From a phage, in the NCBI GenBank assembly GCA_032325415.1, contig GCA_032325415.1_4119.2: a DNA stretch of 45,695 bases. One strand, 5' to 3'. Both the position numbers and the translations under genes were made by a program. The first letter of the stretch is position 1. Each line of letters starts with the position of its first letter. The notes below the pieces were generated by a model, which saw only the letters and a program-made list of their open reading frames with translations, had not been told where the DNA came from and did not search any database. Of the stretch, positions 1-11,922 are shown in pieces.

Positions 1-150
1 AGCATGGGTTAACAATTTAATCCCCCTGGCAATGACTCAATACGAATTTAATATGTGTACAAAGATTGTTTTAACTACTAATGATATCTCTAATACGTAC
101 TACTTCCTATTAAGAGTACTATATGGTACTTTGAAATAATAAGGTATACT

Positions 151-357
151 ATGCAGAACATAAAAAACTATAAAGAGTACTATATAAGTAAACTACCACC
201 GACTGACCAAGCATGGATTAGATCTATAATAGTACTGGCATTTAATAGATATGCATTTAACAGATGTACCGAGATTGCTATAGACCCTTATAATATTAAA
301 GAGAATGTACAGCATAATCAGTACTACTATATGTTAATGCTTATATATAGGAAGTAA
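151..357 (+). CDS. hypothetical small protein (68 aa)
   Basis: ORF from track; weak SD-like AAGG upstream; no canonical promoter cassette; lies in ORF-poor structured region. Confidence 0.3.
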   Translation: MQNIKNYKEYYISKLPPTDQAWIRSIIVLAFNRYAFNRCTEIAIDPYNIKENVQHNQYYYMLMLIYRK

Positions 358-796
358 TTCAACATATAGACAGGGGAAGCTCCGCAGGGAAAGCATTGGA
401 CAGGCTTTAACATATGTTATATATGTTAAAATTCAGCCTGGACAAATGCGATCACTAGGATTCTCCCCAGGCTAAACCCCGTAATCATATGTAGTCATAA
501 GTAATCATATATAAACATTTATATGAGCACCGTAGAATCACAGAATGATTATATATGATTCAGTACTGATTAGTATAGACAAGATTGCTCAAGAATGCTA
601 GGGAAGGATTCAGTACTGCCCCAAAAGTATTCAGTACTGAAGGTGTCGATATGCCACTAAGTAGGCAGAGGAAGTCTGCCGTACTTTGTAGTTTCCAAGC
701 TCCTTTTCCATTTTGCAAATTACATCAAATGTAATCAAAAGTAATCACGCAATGATTAGTACTGAATTATTACTTTCACCTTAATTTCAATTACCC

Positions 797-816
797 TTTT
801 ACCCTTCGGGGTAAAA
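797..816. other. stable hairpin TTTTACCC-UUCG-GGGTAAAA, flanked by direct repeats TTCAATTACCC
   Basis: 8-bp stem with UUCG tetraloop; A/T runs on both sides (possible bidirectional terminator or structural element). Confidence 0.5.
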
Positions 817-1024
817 TTCAATTACCCCTTGAGGCTCCAGCAAAAAGTTGGTTAGTACTCCATCCTAAATCTCGATCCTAAAAATTTTGGAGTACCTATG
901 AAATAAAAGTTGGATCTTCGAAAGTTGAAATTTACGTTGGGACGTTTATGATTTGTGGGATATAATGATGTTTGTAGTCGGGTAGTTCTCAAGAATATCA
1001 GTACTGAAAGATGAAAGAAAGTTA

Positions 1025-1052
1025 TTGACTTTATGATTCAGTACTGTATAAT
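1025..1052 (+). promoter_or_regulatory. sigma70-like promoter with CAGTACTG in spacer; no ORF downstream (possible ncRNA)
   Basis: -35 TTGACT 1025-1030, 16-bp spacer, -10 TATAAT 1047-1052; downstream has hairpins CTGTC-GTGA-GACAG and CCACCAGC-ACAA-GCTGGTGG but only a 20-codon ORF. Confidence 0.45.
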
Positions 1053-1382
1053 GTTCTACATAGAGAGATGAGTTGCTGCGAACAATTCATTTACTCTACC
1101 TCCTGTCGTGAGACAGTACAGAAAAGATAGTTCCTCCTGTGGTGGTACATCTTTTTGAACCTCATATGAAAATCGTAATAACAGTACTGATATTAACAGA
1201 ATGGTATCAGTACTGATTTTAATCTAAAGCATTATGCCACCAGCACAAGCTGGTGGATTCCCTCTAACAGTATTCAGTACTACATGATGGTCTTCATCCT
1301 CCTAGGGTAACATAGTGAGGGCTATGATGGCAGTACTGAATACTCCCTTTCAAAAGATAGATCTATGGTATAGTACTGACGG

Positions 1383-1556
1383 ATTTTGGGCGTAGTTACC
1401 CTGGATGGATTTTGGACGTAGATATGTCTAGCCCTCCAGAAGTCTGGAAGTAAAGATGGCTATCCATCTAGACGGCTAAACGGCTAGATTTCTGGATGGC
1501 TGGATGGCTAGACGTTTGGACGGCTAAACGTCTGGATGTATGGATGGCTAAATCAA
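1383..1556. repeat. iteron-like cluster of short direct repeats (TGGATGGCT, GACGGCTAAACG, ATTTTGGGCGTAG)
   Basis: Repeated units seen directly: GACGGCTAAACG x2, TGGATGGCT x3-4, ATTTTGG(G/A)CGTAG x2; non-coding. Confidence 0.6.
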
Positions 1557-2170
1557 AATTTTTATTTTGTTTTTTCCAATAGTTCCCCTACCGCGTGGGG
1601 ATAGTTTCCCCGCAGTATCTGGTGTTAGATTTTTCTGAATCTGGAATCATTATCTTATAAACTGGGGGCAATGTCAACGGCCTGGACGGATATTTTTAAA
1701 AATTTTTTCAGTACTGAATTTTGGGCGTAACTATGCACCCGGTGGGCTTGAGTCTTTCTCGACTTGATGGAACTATTATACAGTACTGAAAAAATAAAGC
1801 AATACCCTGGAAGCAAAAAAGTTTTAATTAATTTGCTTGCTATCCTGGGCCGGACTATGGTACTATGTTTCAGTACTGAGAAAGTGCGTTTACCTGCTAG
1901 GGTGCGGGAGTGTATCCTTTTTTTATATCTTGAATTTTGGGCGTAATTCCGCACCCTCTGGGGTTTCCGCTTTCTCGCGTCTATGTAGTAATTATACGCT
2001 TTTTCAGGATCAAGTCAATACCTAAAAACAAAATAATTGAAAATAATTTAACGCGTTTAAACGGCCTGTAAAGCCCTGGAATGATTGGAATGGTGCAAAT
2101 GTATAGCTTATGTGTATTAATGCGTTAGAATGCGTCTGAGGCCGTTTTACGGGGTATAGGGATGATTTAG

Positions 2171-2268
2171 TGGATTGATTCAGTACTGAATAATAGTACT
2201 ACTATATAGAAAGATAGTTCCCCTGGATTGATTCAGTACTGAATAATAGTACTCCTATATAGAAAGAA
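2171..2268. repeat. tandem direct repeat, 2 copies of about 44 bp separated by about 10 bp
   Basis: TGGATTGATTCAGTACTGAATAATAGTACT(A/C)CTATATAGAAAGA at 2171-2214 and 2225-2268, one mismatch. Confidence 0.8.
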
Positions 2269-2298
2269 AACTATTTTAAAAGTATTTGTAGAAAGTAC

Positions 2299-2326
2299 TT
2301 GCACCGTACTGATAAAAGCGTATAAT
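2299..2326 (+). promoter_or_regulatory. sigma70-like promoter (cassette type)
   Basis: -35 TTGCAC, 16-bp spacer, -10 TATAAT 2321-2326; followed by GTTTTACATC and hairpin GCGGGA-ACACT-TCCCGC. Confidence 0.65.
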
Positions 2327-2381
2327 GTTTTACATCGAGAGCGGGAACACTTCCCGCTACACATTAAGAGAGATTAAAACG

Positions 2382-2744
2382 ATGGCGACTCAAATCAATA
2401 AAATCATGCTTAACCTGGTAAACTTCCGCGATGAGATGAAAGGTCTTCCGGCTGAAACGGTAAAAATTCACATTGCAGCTTATCGGGAACTTATTGCAAT
2501 GTTGCCGCTTAAGCGTGAACAATACGCCGCTACTTTGATGCTGGATTCAATGATCCATATAATGATCTCAAATGATTTGACGATGGTTTATCAGTATATG
2601 GGCGAAAATTTCGCGGTGTGTAGTAAGCCAGTACCAGGGATGGCAACAACTGAGGAATTGCACGGCTTAAACTTAAAACAAGATGCATGGGATAATATGC
2701 CTCGTTTCCTGGTATGGGCTGACAGTGGCAAAATTTACAAATAA
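2382..2744 (+). CDS. hypothetical protein (120 aa)
   Basis: ATG 2382 after promoter, 5' hairpin and SD; track ORF 2325 start lies inside the -10 element and is rejected. Confidence 0.65.
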   Translation: MATQINKIMLNLVNFRDEMKGLPAETVKIHIAAYRELIAMLPLKREQYAATLMLDSMIHIMISNDLTMVYQYMGENFAVCSKPVPGMATTEELHGLNLKQDAWDNMPRFLVWADSGKIYK

Positions 2745-2758
2745 GTTTAATAAAGTAC

Positions 2759-2786
2759 TTGCAAACTATGTTTAAAAGCGTATAAT
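2759..2786 (+). promoter_or_regulatory. sigma70-like promoter (cassette type)
   Basis: -35 TTGCAA 2759-2764, 16-bp spacer, -10 TATAAT 2781-2786; hairpin GGGGAA-TAG-TTCCCC 2800-2815. Confidence 0.65.
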
Positions 2787-2837
2787 GTTTTACATCAGGT
2801 GGGGAATAGTTCCCCACTATATAAGAGGATTAAAAAA

Positions 2838-3077
2838 ATGGCTAAATCAAAAATGTTCTTAGGTCACAAAAACAAAACTCATTGGAATGTAAGCCTTTGG
2901 ATTAATAACGATGAGGGATTGTATCGGTTGGCCCAGGACTTTATTAACGATAGCACTAATCGCAATGATGCGGCCCGTCATATGATGTTATTTTTAGAAC
3001 AGACTGGACAAGATAAAACACCGGACGGATTCAAATATAGCACTACTGCGATCCGTGCGGCGATGGTTGGAATGTAA
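2838..3077 (+). CDS. hypothetical protein (79 aa), paralog of 4875..5114
   Basis: SD AAGAGGA then ATG 2838; shares GHKNKTHWNVSLW...TPDGFKYSTTAIRAAMVGM with 4875..5114. Confidence 0.7.
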   Translation: MAKSKMFLGHKNKTHWNVSLWINNDEGLYRLAQDFINDSTNRNDAARHMMLFLEQTGQDKTPDGFKYSTTAIRAAMVGM

Positions 3078-3089
3078 TAGAATTTATTT

Positions 3090-3125
3090 AAAGTACTATC
3101 ATTTTTTGCGATAGTACTTTATAAT
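3090..3125 (+). promoter_or_regulatory. inverted repeat AAAGTACTATC-N9-GATAGTACTTT overlapping a -10 TATAAT (operator-type or terminator/promoter)
   Basis: Perfect 11-bp IR 3090-3100 / 3110-3120; TATAAT 3120-3125; -35 degenerate. Confidence 0.45.
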
Positions 3126-3162
3126 AGTGTTTTATTCATACACCAACGATAAGGGCAACAGC

Positions 3163-3429
3163 ATGAATATTAAGTATTTTGCGACGCGTGAACAAGCTCG
3201 GATCGCCGCACGCCAGGACGGGGCAACGTTTAAAGATATGGGAGCGGGATCGGCAAGTGGTGAACGTTGGGCCATTGTAAAGCGTAGTACGGCCAGATCA
3301 TTACAGTACTGGTTAGCGGCCTTAAAAAGTCCCGATAGTGTATCGCGTCGAGTGGTAGAAATAAAGCTCGACCGAAAGGGCAACCGCGTGACCGTGTACC
3401 GTACTAAAAAGATTGCAGTACTTGAATAA
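3163..3429 (+). CDS. hypothetical protein (88 aa), paralog of 15901..16296
   Basis: ATG 3163 downstream of TATAAT; shares KYFATREQARIAARQDGATFKDMG and DRKGNRVTVYRTKK with 15901..16296. Confidence 0.65.
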   Translation: MNIKYFATREQARIAARQDGATFKDMGAGSASGERWAIVKRSTARSLQYWLAALKSPDSVSRRVVEIKLDRKGNRVTVYRTKKIAVLE

Positions 3430-3436
3430 AAAGTAC

Positions 3437-3464
3437 TTGCAAACTATGTTTAAAGGCGTATAAT
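3437..3464 (+). promoter_or_regulatory. sigma70-like promoter (cassette type)
   Basis: -35 TTGCAA, 16-bp spacer, -10 TATAAT 3459-3464; hairpin GCGGGAA-CTC-TTCCCGC. Confidence 0.65.
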
Positions 3465-3516
3465 GTTTTACATCGAGAGCGGGAACTCTTCCCGCCTATA
3501 ACCTGGAGTAATAAAA

Positions 3517-3747
3517 ATGACTAATATGTATATGACTGAAGTTAAAACCGTAAAAGATACTACCACGAATAAAACTACTTACTTACAGCGGATCTGTGGT
3601 GTATGGCAACGTATCAGCAAATCAAAGTACTTTAAATTAACATCATATGCAAATCGTTCGGATTCATTCAGTACTGAAATAAAAGGTAATAAAGTACACC
3701 AATACGGCACTTATTATTATTACAGCCTGGACGCGATTGTAGTATAA
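3517..3747 (+). CDS. hypothetical protein (76 aa)
   Basis: SD GGAGT then ATG 3517; track ORF. Confidence 0.65.
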   Translation: MTNMYMTEVKTVKDTTTNKTTYLQRICGVWQRISKSKYFKLTSYANRSDSFSTEIKGNKVHQYGTYYYYSLDAIVV

Positions 3748-3777
3748 GAAGTTTACAAATCTTTACAATTGCCGGTA

Positions 3778-3806
3778 TTGACTTATTTTGTCAGTACTGG
3801 CATAAT
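3778..3806 (+). promoter_or_regulatory. sigma70-like promoter with no ORF downstream
   Basis: -35 TTGACT 3778-3783, 17-bp spacer, -10 CATAAT 3801-3806. Confidence 0.5.
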
Positions 3807-3960
3807 GTATTCATTGGCAGATAAGCCGTAGCCCATAGGGTGCGGGAGTGTATCTATAGCAAAATTAGTTTAGTATAGTTACAATTGTGCACCCGGTGGG
3901 TTAGCTGTTGTCATGGGGTATATTATGCCAGTACTTGATAATGCTGTCAATACTTTTTTA
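3807..3960 (+). other. candidate structured non-coding transcript carrying GCCCATAGGGTGC and its inverted partner GCACCCGGTGGG
   Basis: No ORF; the two motif copies are about 50 nt apart in opposite orientation and could pair; ends in T-run near 3950. Confidence 0.3.
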
Positions 3961-3989
3961 CTATTCAGTACTGAAAACTATTTTTAAAA

Positions 3990-4172
3990 AGTACTTGCAA
4001 ACTATGTTTAAAGGCGTATAATGTTTTACATCAGGACGGGGAACGAAATAAGTAACTCCCCGTTAAGTAGCCCAGGAGTAAGGCACACGAAAAACTCCCC
4101 TGATAAAATAGTTTGACAAATGTTTTTAAAAGCGTATAATACTTACATCAACTACTGAATGAGGGTTACAAA
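3990..4172 (+). repeat. dual-promoter leader module, copy 1 (near-identical to 14936-15117)
   Basis: Promoter A (-35 TTGCAA 3995-4000, -10 TATAAT 4017-4022), hairpin ACGGGGA...TCCCCGT, conserved AAGTAGCCCAGGAGTAAGGCACACGAAAAACTCCCCTGATAAAATAG, promoter B (-35 TTGACA 4113-4118, -10 TATAAT 4135-4140). Confidence 0.7.
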
Positions 4173-4784
4173 ATGAAAACTATCACTACTACTACTTATG
4201 TTATGGCTTTTTCTGAATTGAACGCAGAACAACAAACGTCAGCTATCGAACTGGTTCGGGAACGTGAAAAAAACTCAAACGACAATTATTTTTCTGAAAG
4301 TGAAATTGAATACTATAAAGAAACAGTACTACCGGAATATGGCATTAATGACGCTGAAATACAATTCAGTGGTTTTTGGTCCCAGGGTGACGGTGCATCA
4401 ATCAGTACTGACAGCGTGGACGCAGTGAAGTTTTTACGCAAGATTAAAGCGTTAACGAAATATCGTTCTATCCGTCACTTGTTGAATGAAGATGATTTGG
4501 CAATGAGTGTAGAACGTTCACACTCTCGCTACGCACACGAAAACACGGTAAGCGGGTACATTGAATCGGCTTACACTGATTTAACCGCAAAACAAGAAAC
4601 GTTAGTTAATGAGCTTGAGGAACTACTCACTGAAACTATTCGTGAATTGTCCCGCAAGTTGTACCGTGATTTAGAGAATGCATATGAGGATCAATTCACT
4701 ACTGAAAACATTACGGCACTGATTGAGGGTAACGAGTATCAATTCAATGTTATTGATGGCGTAGTAGAATCAATCGAATATTAA
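4173..4784 (+). CDS. hypothetical acidic protein (203 aa)
   Basis: SD GAGGG then ATG 4173; track ORF; contains FSGFWSQGDGASI motif; function not recognised with confidence. Confidence 0.7.
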   Translation: MKTITTTTYVMAFSELNAEQQTSAIELVREREKNSNDNYFSESEIEYYKETVLPEYGINDAEIQFSGFWSQGDGASISTDSVDAVKFLRKIKALTKYRSIRHLLNEDDLAMSVERSHSRYAHENTVSGYIESAYTDLTAKQETLVNELEELLTETIRELSRKLYRDLENAYEDQFTTENITALIEGNEYQFNVIDGVVESIEY

Positions 4785-4796
4785 TTTAAAAAGTAC

Positions 4797-4824
4797 TTGC
4801 AAACTAAGTTTAAAAGCGTATAAT
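4797..4824 (+). promoter_or_regulatory. sigma70-like promoter (cassette type)
   Basis: -35 TTGCAA, 16-bp spacer, -10 TATAAT 4819-4824; hairpin GCGGGGA-GTGGT-TCCCCGC. Confidence 0.65.
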
Positions 4825-4874
4825 ACTTTATATCGAGGCGGGGAGTGGTTCCCCGCTCAAACGAGGATTTAAAA

Positions 4875-5114
4875 ATGGCTAGTACTAAAACTTACAACGG
4901 TCACAAAAACAAAACTCATTGGAATGTAAGCCTTTGGGTTAATAACGGTGAGTCATTGTATCGGCTTGCTCAAAGTTGCATCGCACAAAGTAGAACTAAA
5001 GATATTGCTGCGGAATGTATGTACCGCAGATTAAAAGCCAACGGTACTACTACAACGCCGGACGGCTTTAAGTATAGCACTACTGCGATCCGTGCTGCAA
5101 TGGTTGGAATGTAA
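4875..5114 (+). CDS. hypothetical protein (79 aa), paralog of 2838..3077
   Basis: SD ACGAGGA then ATG 4875; paralogy with 2838..3077. Confidence 0.7.
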   Translation: MASTKTYNGHKNKTHWNVSLWVNNGESLYRLAQSCIAQSRTKDIAAECMYRRLKANGTTTTPDGFKYSTTAIRAAMVGM

Positions 5115-5133
5115 TATTCAGTACTGAGATAAT
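5104..5133 (+). promoter_or_regulatory. putative promoter with CAGTACTG in spacer and downstream hairpin
   Basis: -35 TTGGAA 5104-5109, 18-bp spacer, -10 GATAAT 5128-5133; hairpin GGCGGG-N8-CCCGCC 5134-5153. Confidence 0.45.
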
Positions 5134-5171
5134 GGCGGGTAATAGTTCCCGCCTTTACTGAGGGTTATCTA

Positions 5172-5432
5172 ATGAGTAAAGTAATTGCCTATACAGTACT
5201 AAGTAAATCATTATCTATCAGTCATTGCACCGATGGTTATTGGCTATTTGATGAAACGCGTGGCATGAATTTAGCTATGCGTGCAAAAACTGCTGAGGCG
5301 GCGTATATTCAAGCACTGGAATACTACCAGGAACGTTTAAAGGAAGTAGAAGAAGATTATAAAAGCCTCAAAGCGAAAGTAGATCATTTCGTCGGTCAAT
5401 TCATCGAGGAAGACGACGACAAACAATATTGA
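5172..5432 (+). CDS. hypothetical protein (86 aa)
   Basis: SD GAGGG then ATG 5172; track ORF. Confidence 0.65.
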   Translation: MSKVIAYTVLSKSLSISHCTDGYWLFDETRGMNLAMRAKTAEAAYIQALEYYQERLKEVEEDYKSLKAKVDHFVGQFIEEDDDKQY

Positions 5433-5440
5433 AAAAGTAC

Positions 5441-5468
5441 TTGCAATTAGTTTTCAGTACTGTATAAT
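5441..5468 (+). promoter_or_regulatory. sigma70-like promoter
   Basis: -35 TTGCAA 5441-5446, 16-bp spacer containing CAGTACTG, -10 TATAAT 5463-5468. Confidence 0.6.
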
Positions 5469-5506
5469 ACTTTATATCGAGTTAACACTATCCAGGAGCT
5501 TTAATC

Positions 5507-5689
5507 ATGACAACATTATCTGAGGTTATCCGCGAGCAAGCTGCGAAAGCTGGAATGACTGTTATTGATGTAGGGATCGAGGTCGAGATCTCCCCTAACG
5601 AATTGCAAGGCATACCCATGCCTACTAGCTGGGATCGTGCGGGGCGTATGATGCGTGATCACTGGACACTAAGCAATAAAGGCGTATAA
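5507..5689 (+). CDS. hypothetical protein (60 aa)
   Basis: SD CCAGGAG then ATG 5507; stop TAA 5687-5689 lies inside the next -10 hexamer. Confidence 0.6.
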   Translation: MTTLSEVIREQAAKAGMTVIDVGIEVEISPNELQGIPMPTSWDRAGRMMRDHWTLSNKGV

Positions 5690-5690
5690 T
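5663..5690 (+). promoter_or_regulatory. sigma70-like promoter embedded in 3' end of upstream gene
   Basis: -35 TGGACA 5663-5668, 16-bp spacer, -10 TATAAT 5685-5690; leader is a duplicate of the 5469-5506 leader. Confidence 0.55.
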
Positions 5691-5728
5691 ACTTTATATC
5701 GAGTTAACACTATCCAGGAGTAACGGCA

Positions 5729-5917
5729 ATGTTTAATATTTTAATCGTTAATGAACAAGGTAACGAGATTGAAACAATTCAATCCCCAATTAATCCGATT
5801 GGTGCTCATAGTCTGGTAACAGAAAAAGCGGTTTATGATTGTATAGAGTTTTCTGCGTCCTTTAAAAATAATCAGATTGTTGTGCACGTTGAAAATGATT
5901 TTATGGAATTTAATTAA
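5729..5917 (+). CDS. hypothetical protein (62 aa)
   Basis: SD CCAGGAGT then ATG 5729; track ORF. Confidence 0.6.
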   Translation: MFNILIVNEQGNEIETIQSPINPIGAHSLVTEKAVYDCIEFSASFKNNQIVVHVENDFMEFN

Positions 5918-5923
5918 AAGTAC

Positions 5924-5951
5924 TTGCAATTAGTTTTCAGTACTGTATAAT
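5924..5951 (+). promoter_or_regulatory. sigma70-like promoter (cassette type)
   Basis: -35 TTGCAA 5924-5929, 16-bp spacer, -10 TATAAT 5946-5951; hairpin AGGGAGAA-ATGG-TTCTCCCT. Confidence 0.65.
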
Positions 5952-6001
5952 GGTTTACATCAAAGGGAGAAATGGTTCTCCCTGGTAATGAGGAAAATAC
6001 A

Positions 6002-6223
6002 ATGGCTAATATCACTACTCTTTCCCAACTGGAAGCACTGGTTAAATCTATGCGGGAACATGCTGACAAAATCGGCGTACAAGATCCAGCCGTTTGCTTC
6101 TGCGACGAATTGAATGATGATACCCTGGTAATAGCAGAAGTCCAGGACGTTTCTAACTATTCCTCGCGTTACACTGGCGGCGTAGCAAATAAAGGCGACT
6201 TCTGTTTATACCTTACAAAATAA
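6002..6223 (+). CDS. hypothetical protein (73 aa)
   Basis: SD GAGGAAA then ATG 6002, in frame with track ORF 5972 whose start lies in the leader hairpin. Confidence 0.65.
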   Translation: MANITTLSQLEALVKSMREHADKIGVQDPAVCFCDELNDDTLVIAEVQDVSNYSSRYTGGVANKGDFCLYLTK

Positions 6224-6228
6224 CAACG

Positions 6229-6258
6229 CGGGGAGATAATAACTCCCCGTTACTTTTT
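6229..6258 (+). terminator. rho-independent terminator
   Basis: CGGGGAG-ATAATAA-CTCCCCG followed by TTACTTTTT. Confidence 0.7.
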
Positions 6259-6391
6259 CAGTACTGAATCATTTAATAGACGGATCTCGGCACCCGGTGG
6301 GTTAGTGACTGTTTCGTCTTGATGTAGTAATTATGCCAGTACTGGATGCACTTGTCAACAATTATTTTTCAAATACTTTTTATTAAAATAC

Positions 6392-6419
6392 TTGCAATTA
6401 GTTTTTAAACGCGTATAAT
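6392..6419 (+). promoter_or_regulatory. sigma70-like promoter (cassette type)
   Basis: -35 TTGCAA 6392-6397, 16-bp spacer, -10 TATAAT 6414-6419; hairpin GGGGA-GCGGT-TCCCC. Confidence 0.65.
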
Positions 6420-6466
6420 GTTTTGCATAGGGGGAGCGGTTCCCCTGGTAACTAAGGAATAAGAAA

Positions 6467-6703
6467 ATGGTCGAACAAATCAAATCAACGTCTGCGAATG
6501 TAACGGGAACGGTATCCCACTTTACTAGTGATGAATCGCGTGGTGTTCCTTATTGTGCTGTACATGTAAACACTGATGGCAACTACTGGTTTACGGTTTA
6601 CGGATCATATTCATTTGGTCGGCCAGGACATCAAAAAATCCTGGATAAAGTACAACCAACGGGTAAAAATATCACTGCCGAAATGTTTTATAAAAAATCA
6701 TAA
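6467..6703 (+). CDS. hypothetical protein (78 aa)
   Basis: SD TAAGGAAT then ATG 6467; track ORF. Confidence 0.65.
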   Translation: MVEQIKSTSANVTGTVSHFTSDESRGVPYCAVHVNTDGNYWFTVYGSYSFGRPGHQKILDKVQPTGKNITAEMFYKKS

Positions 6704-6708
6704 AGTAC

Positions 6709-6736
6709 TTGATAATAGTTTTTAGTACTGTATAAT
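6709..6736 (+). promoter_or_regulatory. sigma70-like promoter (cassette type)
   Basis: -35 TTGATA 6709-6714, 16-bp spacer, -10 TATAAT 6731-6736; hairpin GGGGGAGCGGTTCCCCC. Confidence 0.6.
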
Positions 6737-6787
6737 ATTTTACATCGCAAGGGGGAGCGGTTCCCCCTGGTAACTAAGGATAATCAA

Positions 6788-7087
6788 ATGAAAATTGCAA
6801 TCATCGCCCTGGCTTTATCTGTTTCCTCTTTCGCTGTTAATGCGTCGTTAGATGTAAGTAGTGAAAAATTCATTCAGTGCACTGTTGCAATGACCGATGA
6901 AAGTACTGGCGAGATTGTATTAAAGGATTTAGAGATCCAGCCGGAAGCATTTAAAAACGGCCCGTTCCATGAAGAAGACGAAAAAGGTAGCACGACAATT
7001 TATTACGATGCAAGTACTAAACGCGGTTCGGTCACTGTAATGGATACGGAGAAAGTAACTCATACTGGCGTTATTAATTGCCGTTGA
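6788..7087 (+). CDS. predicted secreted/periplasmic protein (99 aa) with N-terminal signal peptide
   Basis: N-terminus MKIAIIALALSVSSFAVNA has a basic residue, hydrophobic core and AxA-like cleavage context; SD TAAGGAT. Confidence 0.65.
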   Translation: MKIAIIALALSVSSFAVNASLDVSSEKFIQCTVAMTDESTGEIVLKDLEIQPEAFKNGPFHEEDEKGSTTIYYDASTKRGSVTVMDTEKVTHTGVINCR

Positions 7088-7108
7088 TAGATACTACGGG
7101 GTAACATC

Positions 7109-7339
7109 ATGACTAAGCGAATTGTTTTACTTAACGAAAGCAGTACTACACAACTACTTAACGCCGTACATTATGATATTGAAACGAGTGTTAATCTTAT
7201 CAGTACTGTAGTACTATTGGACACTGGAAAGGTCGCCAATGAAAAAGCTATTGCAGGTGTACTAACTGATCTTGAGCCTGGTAGCAGTACACCCATAACG
7301 TTAAATGATAAAGTGTTTAATGTTTTAATTACTGAATAA
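7109..7339 (+). CDS. hypothetical protein (76 aa)
   Basis: Track ORF 22 nt after previous stop; likely co-transcribed; followed by terminator. Confidence 0.55.
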   Translation: MTKRIVLLNESSTTQLLNAVHYDIETSVNLISTVVLLDTGKVANEKAIAGVLTDLEPGSSTPITLNDKVFNVLITE

Positions 7340-7345
7340 GTACAT

Positions 7346-7368
7346 AGCCCACCTGGTGGGCTTTTTTG
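7346..7368 (+). terminator. rho-independent terminator
   Basis: AGCCCACC-TGGT-GGGCT hairpin followed by TTTTTTGTTTTTG. Confidence 0.75.
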
Positions 7369-7421
7369 TTTTTGTAGTATCGTAGTACTGAGATACTTTG
7401 AAAATAGTTTTAAGAAAGTAG

Positions 7422-7449
7422 TTGACATTACCGCAGAAAAGCGTAGAAT
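7422..7449 (+). promoter_or_regulatory. sigma70-like promoter; leader is a diverged variant of the dual-promoter module
   Basis: -35 TTGACA 7422-7427, 16-bp spacer, -10 TAGAAT 7444-7449; hairpin ACGGGGAG...; second putative promoter TTGATA 7523-7528 / TAAACT. Confidence 0.55.
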
Positions 7450-7572
7450 GTATTACATCAAGACGGGGAGCACTAAGTAGACCGCCAGTAAGTCGAACGA
7501 AAAACTGGACACGTCGAGAAAACTTTGATACACTAATAAACGTAAACTAAACTTTAATTGAGGATTTATAAA

Positions 7573-8055
7573 ATGGCTAATGTAAAATCATTCATCAAAG
7601 CACTGGTAGCAAATGAAACTAACGTCGCGGCTGAGATCCTGGCTGAACTGGATAACGATACCATGAAAGCGGTACGCAATAATTTTAACATCGCTTACAG
7701 TACTGCGAAAGAACTACAAGCAAATAAAGCGGCAGAAATTGAAGCGGCAAAGGCGGCCCGTGAAGCAGAACTACAAGCAACAATCGAAAGTATTCAGGCG
7801 GCAGTAGTTGGATTGGATCTGGAAGTAGTTACAGAGATGGCACAAAAAGCCCTGGCGGTTAAGTATGGGGAAGACAAGCCAGAAGTAAAAGCCAAAAAAT
7901 GGATTCAGGAACGCGTAGCGGTAGTACTGGACAACGGGGAAGAATATCTGATTCCGGTGCGTGGTAACTGCATTGCGGTAGTACTGGACGCGATTAACGC
8001 CAGCGGTATGACTCGCGAGGAATGGATCGAATCTCATCGCAAAGTTGAAGCATAA
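7573..8055 (+). CDS. hypothetical Ala/Glu-rich protein (160 aa)
   Basis: SD TGAGGAT then ATG 7573, in frame with track ORF 7558. Confidence 0.65.
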   Translation: MANVKSFIKALVANETNVAAEILAELDNDTMKAVRNNFNIAYSTAKELQANKAAEIEAAKAAREAELQATIESIQAAVVGLDLEVVTEMAQKALAVKYGEDKPEVKAKKWIQERVAVVLDNGEEYLIPVRGNCIAVVLDAINASGMTREEWIESHRKVEA

Positions 8056-8076
8056 CAATTAAAGTACTGAATCACT

Positions 8077-8104
8077 AGCCCACCTTAAACGGTGGGCTTT
8101 TTTG
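8077..8104 (+). terminator. rho-independent terminator
   Basis: GCCCACC-TTAAAC-GGTGGGC followed by TTTTTTGTG. Confidence 0.8.
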
Positions 8105-8257
8105 TGTTTATCGTTTACCAGGCCACCAGCACCGCCTAGAAACGATTCTAACGCATTAAACTGATTATCTGATGCATTGCCCTAGCTGGTGGCGTTAAGG
8201 CTGTAAGAACGCGATTGAGAGCGTTTAAAGTATTTTGCAAAAAGTAATAAAAAGTAC

Positions 8258-8285
8258 TTGCACGATTAAGAGATTAGCGTATAAT
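8258..8285 (+). promoter_or_regulatory. sigma70-like promoter (cassette type)
   Basis: -35 TTGCAC 8258-8263, 16-bp spacer, -10 TATAAT 8280-8285; GTTTTACATC then GC hairpin. Confidence 0.65.
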
Positions 8286-8340
8286 GTTTTACATCGAGAG
8301 GGGGAAACGGTTCTCCTTCCAAATCAAAGGAATCAAAACA

Positions 8341-8568
8341 ATGGCTATTATCATTACTCGCGTATCTGGTACTACTGGCAACGAACAAGTAGTTGCAGTC
8401 ATTACCAATAAGGAAGGTGCGGAATTGCAAAATGCAATGAATACCTGGGCCGTTAATGAGTTCGGTCAGTGGGCTAGTGTAGCATACATTGAAACCTATC
8501 AAGTGCCGTCGATTAGTTTAACTGATTTGGGCGTTGAGCGTATCCTTTGCCTGGATGAATTAAATTAA
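8341..8568 (+). CDS. hypothetical protein (75 aa)
   Basis: SD AAAGGAAT then ATG 8341; track ORF 8284 start lies inside the promoter. Confidence 0.65.
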   Translation: MAIIITRVSGTTGNEQVVAVITNKEGAELQNAMNTWAVNEFGQWASVAYIETYQVPSISLTDLGVERILCLDELN

Positions 8569-8576
8569 AAAAGTAC

Positions 8577-8604
8577 TTGCAAAGTAAATCGAATAAAGTA
8601 TAAT
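8577..8604 (+). promoter_or_regulatory. sigma70-like promoter (cassette type)
   Basis: -35 TTGCAA 8577-8582, 16-bp spacer, -10 TATAAT 8599-8604; hairpin GGGGAGAA-ATGG-TTCTCCCC. Confidence 0.65.
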
Positions 8605-8653
8605 ACATTACATCAAGGGGAGAAATGGTTCTCCCCACTACAAGGAAACTAAA

Positions 8654-8797
8654 ATGAAAACTTGTCAATGTGGTCAGAAATCTATTACGGGTTTAAAGCG
8701 GGGCGTTGCTCTTTGCCAGTACCATTATAATTTACAAGTATGGGGTAAAGAATGGGCCGATCAAGTGGAAGCAATCAAGAAAGCAAAAAGTAAGTAA
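8654..8797 (+). CDS. small Cys-rich protein (47 aa), not in ORF track
   Basis: Complete cassette (promoter, hairpin, SD AAGGAAA, ATG 8654) with ORF MKTCQCGQKSITGLKRGVALCQYHYNLQVWGKEWADQVEAIKKAKSK; possible metal-binding CxC...C..H. Confidence 0.55.
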   Translation: MKTCQCGQKSITGLKRGVALCQYHYNLQVWGKEWADQVEAIKKAKSK

Positions 8798-8809
8798 AAA
8801 TATTATCAC

Positions 8810-8845
8810 AGTACTATTGACATAGTTTGATAGTACTGGCATAAT
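8810..8845 (+). promoter_or_regulatory. promoter with operator-like inverted repeat AGTACTAT-N12-ATAGTACT
   Basis: AGTACTAT 8810-8817, -35 TTGACA 8817-8822, ATAGTACT 8830-8837, -10 CATAAT 8840-8845. Confidence 0.6.
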
Positions 8846-8878
8846 AGATTTTATCAAGACAACTAAGAGGAAATTAAA

Positions 8879-9223
8879 ATGGCTAACATCAACACTATCG
8901 CAGCACAAAATATCAACCTGTCTTCTGTTGAAGTTGTACATATTGCCGCTCGGCGTTGGTTCCAGGCTTCATATGGTAACACTTATTTCTCTTTAAGTGT
9001 AGACGTAGAAATTGATGGTAATTTTATTGAAGTAGTAAACGTGCCGTTCCAATATGGATACGGGGATCACTTTGACACTGTAGCAATGGAAGAATTTAGC
9101 AAGGTTATTAATATGGAAGATAAAGAGTTTTTACGCGGTTCTTATCTTTCCCGTTTTTGCCGTGACAATAATATCACTGTTTACAGTTCGGTAACTGATG
9201 TTAAACGCAAAAAAGATCTTTAA
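8879..9223 (+). CDS. hypothetical protein (114 aa), distant paralog of 15482..15805
   Basis: SD TAAGAGG then ATG 8879; shares RW..GNTY and C-terminal DVKRKKD with 15482..15805. Confidence 0.65.
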   Translation: MANINTIAAQNINLSSVEVVHIAARRWFQASYGNTYFSLSVDVEIDGNFIEVVNVPFQYGYGDHFDTVAMEEFSKVINMEDKEFLRGSYLSRFCRDNNITVYSSVTDVKRKKDL

Positions 9224-9303
9224 TTAGCTTTACTTTATGCAGATACTTTGATATAGTGTCTGCATAGGGGAAAGAAATTAAATTAACTTAAGAGGATAGT
9301 ATA

Positions 9304-9573
9304 ATGAAAAATATCAGTACTTTAATCGATGCAGGTACTCATGTTCGTCGGTCTATGGTTGCAACCAGTACTACAAAACAAGTAGCGAGCGGTTATCTTG
9401 TATTTGTGCACGATGGAAAACTCCTGGAACGTTCAATCAATTTTGATGTTAAAAACAATTGCCGTTTTATTATCTTTAAGCGTGAGCAATATAAAATTGA
9501 TTTGCCAGCGAAGCCCATTAGCGGGGCGTATAACGTCTATTCATTGTTTGAGCGTCAACCATACACCTATTAA
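9304..9573 (+). CDS. hypothetical protein (89 aa)
   Basis: SD TAAGAGGA then ATG 9304; preceded by hairpin ATGCAGA-N-TCTGCAT 9236-9266. Confidence 0.6.
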   Translation: MKNISTLIDAGTHVRRSMVATSTTKQVASGYLVFVHDGKLLERSINFDVKNNCRFIIFKREQYKIDLPAKPISGAYNVYSLFERQPYTY

Positions 9574-9624
9574 TCAAAACATCGTTAGCGGTCGATTTAG
9601 GCCGCTTATATTGGGGATTATACC

Positions 9625-9897
9625 ATGAACGTTAATCAAGTACTGAATGAAGTTGAAAGCATCATTAAACCAATGAAACGCATTGATGCTATGTTAACAC
9701 CGGAAGAATGCCGCCTTTATGAGCGTTACAGCGTCGAACAAGTCCAGGCAATGGCTATGGCTACCCCAGCCGTTAAACCGCCTGAGAATGCGTTACAGGA
9801 CGTTACAGGGGATTATATCATTAATCCAGTACTAGGGAAGATGGCTGCAATCACCGAAGATCAACAAGACTACTTAAGCCAGTACTTAAAAGGTTAA
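9625..9897 (+). CDS. hypothetical protein (90 aa)
   Basis: Track ORF; SD GGGGA upstream. Confidence 0.55.
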   Translation: MNVNQVLNEVESIIKPMKRIDAMLTPEECRLYERYSVEQVQAMAMATPAVKPPENALQDVTGDYIINPVLGKMAAITEDQQDYLSQYLKG

Positions 9898-9902
9898 TTA
9901 AT

Positions 9903-10112
9903 ATGCTTACTGTACAGGATAAGATCGACATCTTAAAGGTTAATATGTATGTGATTGATGCCGTACCTGGTAAAGTATTTGCATACGATGATAGTACTGT
10001 AAGCGATTTCTACTATAGCCAGGCCGTGGGGGATCTTTCTGTACAGTCGGTTATTGAAAATGTAGTTAATGCAGCGTATGAGCATTTACTTTCAAATAGT
10101 ACTTGCAATTAG
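9903..10112 (+). CDS. hypothetical protein (69 aa)
   Basis: Track ORF 5 nt after previous stop; its stop TAG 10110-10112 lies immediately after the next -35. Confidence 0.55.
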   Translation: MLTVQDKIDILKVNMYVIDAVPGKVFAYDDSTVSDFYYSQAVGDLSVQSVIENVVNAAYEHLLSNSTCN

Positions 10113-10130
10113 TTTTTAAACGCGTATAAT
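10103..10130 (+). promoter_or_regulatory. sigma70-like promoter (cassette type)
   Basis: -35 TTGCAA 10103-10108, 16-bp spacer, -10 TATAAT 10125-10130; hairpin GCGGGAATAGTTCCCCC. Confidence 0.65.
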
Positions 10131-10182
10131 GTTTTACATCGAGAGCGGGAATAGTTCCCCCCTCACTTTTAAGGAATATGAA

Positions 10183-10329
10183 ATGAAAGCATCAAAAAAG
10201 AGTACTAACAAGAAAGCACGTTCAACCTTAGATGGGGTATTCCCTTTACGTTTCGTTGATGAAGTGGTTTCCTACCCGCCTGGCCTTACTCCTGAGATGG
10301 TAGAAAGTTTGCGTAAATCTAAAAAATAG
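10183..10329 (+). CDS. small basic protein (48 aa)
   Basis: SD AAGGAAT then ATG 10183, in frame with track ORF 10129 whose start is in the promoter. Confidence 0.55.
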   Translation: MKASKKSTNKKARSTLDGVFPLRFVDEVVSYPPGLTPEMVESLRKSKK

Positions 10330-10332
10330 TAC

Positions 10333-10360
10333 TTGCAATTAGTTTTTAGTACTGTATAAT
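10333..10360 (+). promoter_or_regulatory. sigma70-like promoter (cassette type)
   Basis: -35 TTGCAA 10333-10338, 16-bp spacer with CAGTACTG, -10 TATAAT 10355-10360; hairpin GGGGAGAA-ATGA-TTCTCCCC. Confidence 0.65.
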
Positions 10361-10410
10361 GTTTTACATGAAGGGGAGAAATGATTCTCCCCAATAACAG
10401 GAGAAACAAA

Positions 10411-10563
10411 ATGAAACAATACAACGCTCGGTTTGATGTTACTATCGGTAACGGCAAAGGTCAATTCTCTTTCAGTACTCGCCGCAGTTATACAGAAAAC
10501 TTCCTGCGTAATTGTGCACTGACCGCCGCTCAAATTAAACATTACTTTCAGGCTAAAAAATGA
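10411..10563 (+). CDS. small protein (50 aa)
   Basis: SD CAGGAGA then ATG 10411, in frame with track ORF 10381. Confidence 0.55.
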   Translation: MKQYNARFDVTIGNGKGQFSFSTRRSYTENFLRNCALTAAQIKHYFQAKK

Positions 10564-10649
10564 GATCATTAGCTTATTACAGTTCGGCCCTGGTCGGTGC
10601 ATTGATCGCGGCGTTGTTAGTAACCTATCTATTCTTTATGGTGATTTAA
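10560..10649 (+). CDS. small hydrophobic membrane peptide (29 aa)
   Basis: ATG 10560 overlaps upstream stop (ATGA); MRSLAYYSSALVGALIAALLVTYLFFMVI is a single predicted transmembrane helix; not in track. Confidence 0.45.
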   Translation: MRSLAYYSSALVGALIAALLVTYLFFMVI

Positions 10650-10784
10650 ATGAATCCTAACGGTATAGTTTACAGTACTCCTAAAACGAAAGCAGATAAA
10701 GCTAAAGCACGTAAAGCGAAAGTAAAGGAGTACATCAAGCAAGGCATGACACGAAAGGCCGCAGTACTTAAAGCTAAAAAATAA
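10650..10784 (+). CDS. small Lys-rich basic protein (44 aa)
   Basis: ATG 10650 directly follows the previous stop (TAAATG); MNPNGIVYSTPKTKADKAKARKAKVKEYIKQGMTRKAAVLKAKK; not in track. Confidence 0.4.
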   Translation: MNPNGIVYSTPKTKADKAKARKAKVKEYIKQGMTRKAAVLKAKK

Positions 10785-10787
10785 ATG

Positions 10788-10882
10788 AAAAAAGTGGTTG
10801 ACTTCGGTCAGCCATTTTGCTATTATATATTCATTGAGAGATAGCTCACTAGCCCACAGGGTGCAGGAGTGTATCTATTATA
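10788..10882 (+). repeat. R module copy 1: terminator-like hairpin with embedded promoter plus conserved core AGCCCACAGGGTGCAGGAGTGTATCT
   Basis: Hairpin GTGGTTGAC-TTCG-GTCAGCCAT (wobble-compensated), -35 TTGACT 10798-10803, -10 TATTAT 10821-10826; homologous to 14813, 17527, 19497. Confidence 0.65.
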
Positions 10883-10920
10883 TGAGTATTGAGTACTGAA
10901 AACTATTTTTAAAAAAGTAC

Positions 10921-10948
10921 TTGCAAACTATCTCAATAAGCGTATAAT
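10921..10948 (+). promoter_or_regulatory. sigma70-like promoter (cassette type)
   Basis: -35 TTGCAA 10921-10926, 16-bp spacer, -10 TATAAT 10943-10948; hairpin AGGGGAAAC-G-GTTTCCCCT. Confidence 0.65.
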
Positions 10949-10999
10949 GTTTTACATCGAAAGGGGAAACGGTTTCCCCTGGTAATAAGGAAACAAATC

Positions 11000-11341
11000 A
11001 TGACTATCTCAATTGCTCAATCTAACTTTGAAAATGAAATCATCGCCCAGGCACTGCGTTTAAATGATGGTCGGGCCGAAATTAATTACGGTTTCAATTC
11101 AGGCGGTTGTGAAAAATATCAGTACTTTGTAACGGCTGATGGCGGTGTCCTGGGTATCAATACAGTTATTGTAAACATCCAAAAAATTAATTTCAATGAT
11201 CCAGAGGATAGCCAGTTTTACATCACTGGCGTAGACGTGAACTATGAGGATGACTCACTAACTGATGATCACACTGGTGAGCGGTTAGAAAGTGCATACG
11301 GTGAAGATGATTATCAGTCCGGTCCAGAAGATTTCGAATAA
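11000..11341 (+). CDS. hypothetical acidic protein (113 aa)
   Basis: SD TAAGGAAA then ATG 11000; track ORF. Confidence 0.65.
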   Translation: MTISIAQSNFENEIIAQALRLNDGRAEINYGFNSGGCEKYQYFVTADGGVLGINTVIVNIQKINFNDPEDSQFYITGVDVNYEDDSLTDDHTGERLESAYGEDDYQSGPEDFE

Positions 11342-11355
11342 TATAAAAAAATAGT

Positions 11356-11383
11356 TTGACAATAGATTATAGTACTGTATAAT
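11356..11383 (+). promoter_or_regulatory. sigma70-like promoter (cassette type)
   Basis: -35 TTGACA 11356-11361, 16-bp spacer with AGTACTG, -10 TATAAT 11378-11383; hairpin GGGGAGAA-TAG-TTCTCCCC. Confidence 0.65.
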
Positions 11384-11436
11384 AGTTTACATCAAGGGGA
11401 GAATAGTTCTCCCCACTAACAGAGAGAGAAAACAAA

Positions 11437-11649
11437 ATGGCTAATATCCGGTCGAAATTAAAAAATGCAAAACAAGTTTTATTTTCAGATCATGAATACT
11501 TTAATAAAGATATTACAGGAGTTACAAGTATCAAGGAAGTAAAAGAAAAAACCGGCGTTTTGTGTGATGTGCGATTAGTTGGAACATTTGGGAATAACGT
11601 GCTATATCGCTGCGGTGATTACAATTTTACACTGACTATCATTAACTAA
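11437..11649 (+). CDS. hypothetical protein (70 aa)
   Basis: ATG 11437 after AGAGAGAGAAAACAAA leader; track ORF. Confidence 0.6.
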   Translation: MANIRSKLKNAKQVLFSDHEYFNKDITGVTSIKEVKEKTGVLCDVRLVGTFGNNVLYRCGDYNFTLTIIN

Positions 11650-11661
11650 AAATATTATCAC

Positions 11662-11911: not shown

Positions 11912-11922
11912 AATATATTACC

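Follow-up and report, generated by a model that had tools for sequence, protein, structure and literature searches.

An array of MetJ operator-like boxes near the terminal-repeat boundary of Asteriusvirus jumbo phages, with counterparts in unrelated phage families

Introduction

Phage T7 carries short degenerate repeat arrays, SRL and SRR, that flank its terminal repeat, and a polymerase that pauses close to the boundary has been linked to the processing of concatemers; both polymerase-driven DNA entry and the polymerase pause at the concatemer junction are established for this phage. At lambda cosB, a host DNA-binding protein, IHF, occupies a cis site beside the terminase cut. Many short tandem units also make up the centromere arrays of ribbon-helix-helix (RHH) proteins, such as the omega heptads of pSM19035 and the ParR iterons of R1, on which dimers of the MetJ/Arc fold bind cooperatively and form a filament.

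The operators of the methionine repressor MetJ are built from met boxes, 8-bp units with the consensus AGACGTCT; one dimer binds each box, at least two adjacent boxes are needed for repression, and MetJ is confined to five gammaproteobacterial orders, Enterobacteriales among them (PMC3228920). In phage T5, the injection stop (iss) region is an untranslated, repeat-dense part (9140-10149) of the 10,219-bp repeat. Paired DnaA boxes and DRE repeats are the candidates for its stop signal, and the shear point of first-step transfer lies near 9618 (Davison, bioRxiv 10.1101/866236). Here we describe a tandem array with the sequence features of MetJ operators in the terminal repeat of an Asteriusvirus phage, and compare it with these systems.

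Results

Source phage and terminal repeat

The window, by which we mean the whole 45,695-nucleotide stretch of DNA analysed, comes from the genus Asteriusvirus, PBECO4/121Q-like jumbo myoviruses that infect E. coli and Salmonella and have genomes of 350-385 kb; it is 87-99% identical to 44 records (megablast). At position 660 it reads AGTAGGCAGAGG, the first bases of several relatives' records whose ends were set by PhageTerm or by restriction. Among the records that begin at this sequence, vB_Ec-M-J has an annotated direct terminal repeat (DTR) of 21,525 bp and fEgEco12 has a 20,993-bp repeat confirmed by digests; window positions 1-659 map directly before the right-hand repeat copy of fEgEco12. 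Taken together, the record starts and this mapping place the left boundary of the DTR at 660 and make 1-659 the right end of the unique region (Table 1). Since the relatives' first annotated gene has its counterpart at 2382, positions 660-2380 form a 1.7-kb untranslated stretch. The array lies in this non-coding, repeat-dense stretch, 763-890 bp inside the DTR, and no ORF of at least 40 aa overlaps the array region on either strand.

Table 1. Features of the terminal region, in window coordinates.
Feature	Position	Strand	Remarks
Left boundary of the ~21-kb DTR	660		Physical genome end in relatives
Two copies of ATTTTGGRCGTAG	1383..1421 (1383, 1409)	+	Directly upstream of array
Array, sixteen contiguous 8-bp units	1422..1549		128 bp, one register, no indels
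Array core, 12 consecutive in-register met-box-like units	1454..1549		90.5 bits
AT-rich tract AAATCAAAATTTTTATTTTGTTTTTT	1550..1575		Abuts array; in all Asteriusvirus relatives
Right-flank block TTTTCCAATAGTTCCCCTACCGCG / TTTTCCAWTRGYTMSCCTWCCGCG	1572..1595		Conserved, common to four jumbo-phage genera
Stem-loop GCGTGGGGATAGTTTCCCCGC	1593..1613		Compensatory changes at 6/10 predicted pairs, six phages
Leftward sigma70-like promoter, TTGACA-17-GATAAT	1649..1677	-	Predicted; 11/12 match
TAATGCGTTAGAATGCGTCTGAGGCCGTTTTACGGGGTAT	2119..2158	+	Resembles a motif of many T5-like phages (85-87.5% identity, 39-40 nt)

Sixteen 8-bp units in one register

A sequence-only reading of this DNA had pointed to a cluster of short direct repeats in near-regular order. 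The repeats are real: GACGGCTAAACG occurs at 1471 and 1519, TGGATGGCT at 1493, 1501 and 1541 (with TGGATGG at 1402), and ATTTTGG[GA]CGTAG at 1383 and 1409. They are also ordered, but the reading missed a strict 8-bp periodicity of sixteen units in a single register. From 1422, units 1 to 8 are ATATGTCT agccctcc AGAAGTCT ggaagtaa AGATGGCT ATCCATCT AGACGGCT AAACGGCT, and units 9 to 16 are AGATTTCT GGATGGCT GGATGGCT AGACGTTT GGACGGCT AAACGTCT GGATGTAT GGATGGCT. The units are heterogeneous, with 12 different sequences among the 16, and in the output of Tandem Repeats Finder the array spans 1467-1552, with periods of 8, 16, 24 and 40. The ATTTTGGRCGTAG/ATTTTGGRCGTA pair is a motif separate from the array, with further copies at 1718 and 1934.

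Units were scored with a symmetrised met-box matrix from the literature, at the thresholds published with it (PMC3228920), by which a box needs at least one quarter of the consensus score and a site total at least the consensus score, 12.58 bits. The array passes on both counts: 14 of the 16 units lie above the box threshold (108.1 bits across all 16), and 12 consecutive ones total 90.5 bits against the 12.58 required. Just one of the eight phases scores, the other seven being strongly negative. In 100 dinucleotide-preserving shuffles of the window, the longest in-register run was 3 units and the maximum 19.3 bits; outside the array, the best run in the whole 45.7 kb was 2 units. A random 8-mer of the same base composition would reach the mean score of the array, 6.76 bits, with a probability of 0.0019, about 1.5% once all eight phases are allowed for. 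The array exceeds by far what chance would produce.

Likeness to MetJ operators

Under identical scoring, the E. coli K-12 operators of metJ/metB (4 boxes, 31.2 bits) and metF (4 boxes, 24.9 bits) indicate that the per-box quality of the phage array equals that of E. coli operators, while its boxes are three to four times more numerous. Across 133 units from nine phages, the commonest base is that of AGACGTCT at all eight positions. Set against 832 curated half-sites, these units have the same full base ranking at six of eight positions (r = 0.925), a comparison somewhat biased by the use of the same matrix to delimit the units. The 133 units are strand-asymmetric, with G at position 6 in 45% of them, compared with 10% expected, and C at the mirror position 3 in only 10%.

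As in a met operator, the boxes are adjacent (12 of them) and contiguous 8-bp units without spacer, and the Asteriusvirus hosts, E. coli and Salmonella, carry MetJ. What a met operator would have and the array does not is overlap with the promoter of a gene in the methionine regulon: no met gene is present, and the nearest promoter-like site is about 93 nt off. A tblastn search with E. coli MetJ found no homologue in 50,697 phage records, its three matches being contaminant or host records, and none was found in the window; on these grounds we rejected a phage-encoded MetJ.

The loose form of the motif also occurs elsewhere. An IUPAC scan for five RRAYGKYT units in viral contigs returned 23 stretches, mostly homogeneous microsatellites, with T5-like isolates among the heterogeneous matches. 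In bacterial genomes the same pattern gave at least 120 matches, nearly all of them homogeneous microsatellites, in Bacteroidota and others; bacteria that lack MetJ are among those with such microsatellites. On its own the loose pattern has no diagnostic value, and the scan of bacteria says nothing about hosts.

Conservation and distribution

The sequence-only reading had named conservation in related phages as a check on its repeats, and in ten Asteriusvirus relatives they are neither missing nor scrambled. The register is kept and the arrays differ by whole units, from 12 (SHEFM2K) through 16 (the window and G17), 18 (vB_Ec-M-J and CRJP21) and 19 (fEgEco12, 121Q, UE-S1 and A4) to 24 (EJP2). 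Although identity to EJP2 is only about 71% in this part, 21 of the 24 EJP2 units pass, at 144.8 bits, whereas after simulated neutral divergence of 30% only 28% of units still pass and the mean score falls below zero. The CMSTMSU sequence, a record marked "unverified", shows a break in phase that a 1-bp deletion could explain.

BLAST with the window region and with the array of Aeromonas phage AhSzw-1 recovered arrays in other lineages. They are found in Ermolevavirus of the Autographiviridae (PGT2 and phiKT), in Demerecviridae (Providencia phages PR1 and PSTCR5, Aeromonas phages AhSzw-1 and AhSzq-1, and many Vibrio phages, including Pontus, pVp-1 and JSF10), in Eneladusvirus (Serratia BF, Erwinia pEa_SNUABM and Yersinia fHe-Yen9), in Mimasvirus (XbC2, Kaldavass and GAP32) and in Vibrio phage D164. 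Read in register, these arrays have 9-21 units, and those of T5-like phages are nearest to the palindromic consensus. The PR1 array reads AGCCGTCT AAACGTCT GGACGTCT AAACGTCT AGATGGCT GGACGTCT AGATGGCT GGACGTCT AGACGTCC, with 9.8 bits per box, and that of AhSzw-1 has 16 boxes and 138.9 bits.

In phages with known ends, the array always lies within the DTR, near one boundary. It is 648-775 bp from the boundary in XbC2, which has a DTR of 17,581 bp (PhageTerm), and 767-850 bp from the right boundary in PR1 (DTR 1-10,461), past the last gene and its terminator. PGT2 has a DTR of 259 bp, the first bases of its record being found again at the right end, and its array occupies 38-109; in BF the array is about 665-800 bp from the record start.

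The 90 records matched by the AhSzw-1 array come from hosts in Escherichia, Vibrio, Erwinia, Aeromonas, Salmonella, Yersinia, Providencia and Serratia, plus one Xanthomonas, and all listed hosts belong to MetJ-bearing orders except this last. The exception, XbC2, is reported to plaque on Xanthomonas, which is without MetJ, and has 84.6% similarity to a phage of Erwinia; in XaC1, a more divergent jumbo phage of Xanthomonas, the first 4 kb contain no array. Searches at BLAST sensitivity of 5,426 complete E. coli genomes and of 72,556 plasmids found no comparable array. The occurrence of one 8-bp unit in three unrelated phage families is most simply explained by a host factor common to their hosts. 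However, unit order is partly common to the window, PGT2 and BF (AGACGTTT-RGACGGCT-AAAYG), suggesting that the module may have spread horizontally, and if so, the host-range correlation rests on few independent lineages.

A conserved slot with interchangeable content

Six jumbo phages from four groups align around the array through homologous flanks, with the GATTTTGGGYGTA motif on the left and the AT-rich tract, the conserved block and the stem-loop on the right. In Serratia phage BF and Klebsiella phage fENko-Kae01, GAATTTTGGGTGTA precedes the slot. Because the right-flank block is common to the four jumbo genera, the slot is positionally homologous. The start inferred for the predicted leftward promoter lies about 93 nt from the array edge, and transcription from it would enter the array. 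This promoter is conserved in Asteriusvirus, including EJP2, and in fENko-Kae01; none facing the array was detected in BF, XbC2, PR1, AhSzw-1 or PGT2. Among the phages checked it is confined to Asteriusvirus and fENko-Kae01, and we rejected it as a universal feature. An Rfam scan of positions 1-3000 gave a single chance miRNA match (E = 0.87), and among the first ten DTR genes DUF7249 alone (twice) passed the Pfam cut-off, with no DNA-binding domain.

The record of fENko-Kae01 begins at its 19,736-bp DTR. Between the same flanks this phage has no met boxes and carries Fur-box-like repeats instead, such as GAGAATAATAATGATTATC, which matches the Fur-box consensus GATAATGATAATCATTATC at 16 of 19 positions. 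A second match is shifted by 6 bp, which is typical of Fur arrays. The exchange of a MetJ-type for a Fur-type cassette suggests that what matters is an abundant host repressor polymerising on tandem sites, possibly one that reports metabolic state.

Pieces in common with the T5 injection stop region

Like the iss region, window positions 660-2380 are untranslated, rich in repeats and located inside the DTR near a boundary. In the T5-like phages PR1, AhSzw-1 and Pontus, the met-box array directly follows DnaA boxes and a LexA-box-like palindrome, and occupies the place of the DRE repeats of T5. T5 itself has no met-box array, and its DRE repeats are Fur-box-like, with 15 of 19 matches and pairs shifted by 6 bp. 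In addition, the TAATGCGTTAGAATGCGTCTGAGGCCGTTTTACGGGGTAT motif (E = 8e-3 to 0.1 for its matches in T5-like phages, against 2.3 Gb) has its T5 counterpart at the start of IRD', in the injection-stop region. Paired DnaA boxes are absent from the window region, as 660-2380 contains no DnaA or LexA box, and the window has no homologue of T5 A1, A2 or dmp (tblastn E > 0.4, a level at which remote homologues could escape). The window region may work like the T5 iss and shares pieces with it but fails two defining features, and we do not class it as a member.

Discussion

At the level of sequence, the array matches MetJ operators in period, consensus, substitution spectrum and box quality; it persists as the phages diverge and keeps a fixed place near the DTR edge. 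We consider it rather probable that MetJ binds the array. The fuller reading, in which the cluster is a tandem array of 14-16 host-MetJ operator boxes and a SAM-MetJ filament on it serves as a cis roadblock or landmark, has in our judgement about an even chance of being right.

In an infected cell, SAM-loaded MetJ dimers, one per 8-bp box, would polymerise cooperatively, and the resulting filament would cover about 130 bp, at a depth of 0.76-0.89 kb within the terminal repeat. It would regulate no methionine gene; rather, this host-protein filament would be a cis-acting roadblock or landmark in a T5-iss-like control region at the repeat edge. It would sit in the path of RNA polymerase heading to the DTR boundary, here from the predicted leftward promoter, and so could stop whatever is coupled to that transcription, be it transcription running on past the junction of repeat and unique region, DNA entry driven by polymerase, or priming from an R-loop at the AT-rich tract. 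In jumbo phages the array faces the conserved, predicted leftward promoter, and in T5-like phages it lies beyond the last terminator of the rightward units; in both, the filament would separate transcription from the repeat boundary close by. By analogy with T7, a block at this place could control DNA entry, shield the junction of repeat and unique region, or hold an R-loop in place at the AT-rich tract. Related phages would fill the same slot with sites of another polymerising, metabolite-sensing host repressor, for which the Fur-like boxes are candidates. The roadblock role itself we purely infer.

Several observations weigh on the other side. The strand asymmetry of the units is not predicted by a symmetric dimer alone and counts against MetJ. 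The reading is weakened by an array length atypical of operators, by a reported XbC2 host without MetJ and by lineages that are not fully independent, as well as by similar 8-bp microsatellites in bacteria without MetJ and by a facing promoter that is not universal.

MetJ coating may be one case of a broader arrangement, which we put forward tentatively and with more doubt than belief. Virulent DTR phages (T5-like, Rak2-like jumbo and some T7-like) may carry, in a fixed slot near the repeat edge, an interchangeable cassette of tandem sites for a host repressor that polymerises and senses a metabolite, with the filament as a stop or landmark. The cassette would hold MetJ-SAM sites in the window phage and Fur-Fe-like sites in fENko-Kae01 and T5. 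The filament would then be the long-sought cis-acting stop or landmark, controlling either DNA entry coupled to polymerase (the T5 injection stop signal) or the processing of concatemers, and the handling of genome ends would depend on the metabolic state of the host.

Alternatively, the binder could be encoded by the phage. The sequence-only reading had likened the cluster to iterons bound by an initiator or a terminase small subunit, and part of this holds: it is a conserved array of protein-binding type in a non-coding cis region, 763-890 bp from the terminase cut. Given its conservation by the DTR boundary, followed by the AT-rich tract, a role tied to genome ends or priming is reasonable. 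A small terminase or RHH protein could recognise it for packaging or end processing, the met-box likeness being coincidental or due to a MetJ-like fold. Such a protein would suit the strand-asymmetric units, as a non-palindromic site, and the constant position in the DTR by one boundary (763-890 in the window, 648-775 in XbC2, 767-850 in PR1 and 38-109 in PGT2); the partly common unit order suggests a mobile module, and RHH proteins such as omega and ParR are known to bind tandem arrays of 7-11-bp units. However, a small-terminase site should be the sequence of one lineage, and this unit is found in Autographiviridae, Demerecviridae and jumbo myoviruses, three families that are unrelated to one another, as are their machineries for packaging and replication, a distribution that speaks against an initiator or small terminase specific to one lineage. 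The same DNA-binding specificity would be required in all three, and the consensus of the array family coincides with that of MetJ at 8 of 8 positions. Moreover, phage records and window contain no MetJ homologue, a Pfam search of the ten nearest genes turned up no DNA-binding domain, and the fENko-Kae01 slot has been refilled with Fur-like boxes while its flanks were conserved. We therefore regard a phage-encoded binder as unlikely.

Another role for MetJ itself would be as the target of a decoy, with replicating phage DNA, at two arrays per genome, titrating the repressor off the host met regulon and raising methionine and SAM; by extension, Fur-like cassettes would act likewise on iron uptake. 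The many boxes, the fast change in copy number (12-24 units), the doubling by the DTR and the exchange for sites of another metabolic repressor all fit a sponge, and repeated decoy sites do sequester transcription factors in a synthetic yeast system (PMC3322331). Yet a sponge could sit anywhere, whereas the arrays are found only in DTR phages and by the repeat boundary, with none in the plasmids and E. coli genomes searched (0 of 72,556 and 0 of 5,426). T5-like and T7-like phages also silence or degrade host genes early in infection, so that little would remain to be derepressed. A decoy function is quite unlikely.

The origin-like part of the sequence-only reading fares less well. In a replication origin, the repeats would be iterons for a phage initiator beside a DNA-unwinding element (DUE), and an AT-rich tract does adjoin the array, with a predicted promoter that would fire into it. 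This layout resembles that of the T4 origins oriF and oriG, which combine a promoter with a DUE, and these jumbo phages have been described as distant T4 relatives. But the units are 8 bp and contiguous, not iterons of about 17-22 bp in helical phase; positions 660-2380 contain no DnaA box, and neither an initiator gene nor a DNA-binding domain was identified among the first ten downstream genes. Nor does the position elsewhere suit an origin, as the array lies 38-109 bp from a T7-like genome end and in the T5-like iss region, while T5 origins are mid-genome. With contiguous 8-bp units and neither DnaA nor LexA boxes, we rejected the classical iteron or DnaA-origin reading, and the chance that the array belongs to an origin served by a phage initiator is slim. 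A functionless minisatellite generated by neutral slippage, to which whole-unit copy-number changes and the homogeneous 8-bp microsatellites of similar composition in many bacteria might point, is very improbable, since the units are heterogeneous (12 different of 16) and yet keep register and met-box score over about 30% divergence, the position is kept in four jumbo genera, and the array recurs in unrelated families.

If MetJ does coat the array, phages would have turned a host metabolic repressor into a structural or control element of their genome ends, and our searches of the accessible literature turned up no such case. In full-text literature, older subscription papers aside, we found nothing that links met boxes or MetJ to phage repeat arrays and nothing on decoy sites in phage genomes. 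The Asteriusvirus genome papers that we consulted do not mention the array, and MetJ, LexA and methionine do not appear in Davison's analysis of the iss region (bioRxiv 10.1101/866236). MetJ coating would supply a candidate factor, cheaply testable, for the decades-old question of what stops T5-type first-step DNA transfer. It would also extend that question to jumbo phages, whose repeats of about 20 kb, with many small sigma70-driven genes, resemble a first-step-transfer region. More generally, it suggests that untranslated, repeat-rich phage termini, which usually go unannotated, may be clusters of sites for host proteins (MetJ, Fur-like, LexA-like and DnaA), and it predicts that host genotype (metJ, metK and fur) and nutrients (methionine and iron) would affect infection by therapeutic jumbo coliphages.

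Compared with known systems, the array is closest to MetJ operators in its contiguous 8-bp units, consensus, tolerated substitutions and per-box scores. It differs in that the E. coli operators scored here have 4 boxes and the phage arrays 12-24, in the arrays being 3-5 times longer than these operators, and also in its location in a virulent phage, in having no met gene and no promoter overlap, and in its over-use of G at position 6. The T5 iss (Repeat Region 3) is likewise an untranslated, repeat-dense region of a long DTR, at most about 1 kb from one boundary; two-step DNA transfer is a feature of T5, with none known for jumbo phages. With T7 SRL and SRR the array shares short degenerate repeats beside a DTR boundary, but those have a CCTAAAG-type motif, are spaced, lie outside the repeat and implicate no host repressor. 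RHH centromere arrays also consist of many short tandem units, but they belong to plasmid partition systems with the cognate gene adjacent, and no array similar to ours was found in the 72,556 plasmids. The IHF site of lambda cosB is a single bending site at cos ends, as opposed to a putative polymerising array at DTR ends, and the two would be alike in recruiting a host protein to a cis site by the terminase cut. Against this background, the locus appears to be new as a MetJ-operator-like array in a new context, forming part of a T5-iss-like terminal region.

Sites resembling host-repressor operators

Scored against the Fur-box consensus GATAATGATAATCATTATC, Fur-box-like repeats in fENko-Kae01, T5 and AhSzw-1 reach 13-16/19, with frequent pairs shifted by 6 bp, and such matches are about 10 times as frequent as in mononucleotide shuffles. 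In addition, near-perfect LexA-box-like palindromes adjoin DnaA boxes in the injection stop signal (iss) regions of the T5-like phages T5, PR1 and Pontus. Taken with the MetJ-like and Fur-like sites, these palindromes give the iss regions of T5-like phages the look of clusters of host-repressor sites. The palindromes are not mentioned in the preprint on the T5 iss (Davison, bioRxiv 10.1101/866236). The window also carries a 40-nt motif, GCGTTAGAATGCG...CGTTTTA, with 85-87.5% identity over 39-40 nt to many Tequintavirus/Epseptimavirus-like phages, and its position in T5 is the start of IRD' in the iss region.

Features of the window and of related phages, with their locations
Feature	Location	Strand	Remarks
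Fur-box-like repeats	Klebsiella phage fENko-Kae01 690-800		Fill the slot (homologous place) occupied by met boxes in the window
Fur-box-like repeats	T5 stretch 7500-11500, at 2050-2215 (record about 9549-9714)		At the DRE repeats, close to the shear point of first-step transfer
Fur-box-like repeats	AhSzw-1 stretch 2477-2501		Directly adjoin the met-box array
LexA-box-like palindrome TACTGTATAAATATACAGTA	T5 stretch 1910-1929 (record 9409-9428)
LexA-box-like palindrome CTGTATATCTATACAG	PR1 stretch about 1988-2003
LexA-box-like palindromes	Pontus stretch about 1308-1323 and about 1378-1393
40-nt motif	Window 2119-2158
Stem-loop	Window 1593-1613		Right of the met-box array
Sigma70-like promoter, strong (11/12)	Window 1649-1677	-	Untranslated region; conserved in EJP2 and fENko-Kae01
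Sigma70-like promoter, strong (11/12)	Window 1991-2018	-	Untranslated region; conserved in EJP2 and fENko-Kae01
Pair of 79-nt direct repeats (71% identity)	Window 1703-1781 and 1919-1997		Start with the ATTTTGGGCGTA motif, include GCACCC...GGG
Terminator-like hairpin	Window 1899-1918
10-bp tandem repeats GTAATCATAA, ATCAAAAGTA	Window 481-509 and 724-747		Either side of the direct terminal repeat (DTR) boundary at 660

Other repeats and a phase break

No met boxes are found in the first 4 kb of Xanthomonas phage XaC1; its terminal untranslated region has another repeat, TAATCATTAGCATCCTAATCATT / ATAATTAGCATCCTAATGATCA, at about 880-1000, which possibly represents sites for some other factor. 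The met-box array of CMSTMSU, an 'unverified' record, shifts phase by one base at about 470-500 (GGATGGCTGGATGGC-TGACGTTT). The shift may come from a sequencing error; if it is genuine, it offers a natural test of whether the register matters. Bacteroidota (Saprospiraceae, Chitinophagaceae, Prolixibacteraceae) and some giant-virus contigs commonly carry homogeneous 8-bp microsatellites of type AAATGGTT, GGATGGCT or AACCATCC; these bear no relation to MetJ hosts.

The untranslated region and early genes

Four groups of jumbo phages conserve the stem-loop beside the array, and 6 of its 10 pairs show compensatory changes (alignment A3). Similar GGGG...CCCC hairpins are also seen in early-gene 5' leaders, e.g., at 2799-2817. 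Downstream of both leftward predicted promoters, no minus-strand ORF of at least 40 aa is present in window 992-1655; their product may be a non-coding RNA, or transcription per se may be used in cis. A segment related to the 79-nt direct repeats, ccgcaccctctggggtatccg, is found in Serratia phage BF and fENko-Kae01, and the second 10-bp repeat site is longer by one unit in vB_Ec-M-J.

AGTACT (201 copies in the whole window) and the palindrome CAGTACTG (51 copies, 13 of them within 560-2240) are densest in window 1-20000 and 35000-45000. In many of the early promoters, for example at 2754 and 2294, AGTACTTG lies directly against the -35 hexamer. Throughout window 2290-6220, every small early gene in the DTR has its own near-consensus sigma70 promoter, 5'-leader hairpin and strong ribosome-binding site, and 2 of the first 10 gene products are DUF7249 paralogues (2838-3074, 4845-5111). 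The layout of these small early genes is similar to that of the pre-early region of T5-like phages.
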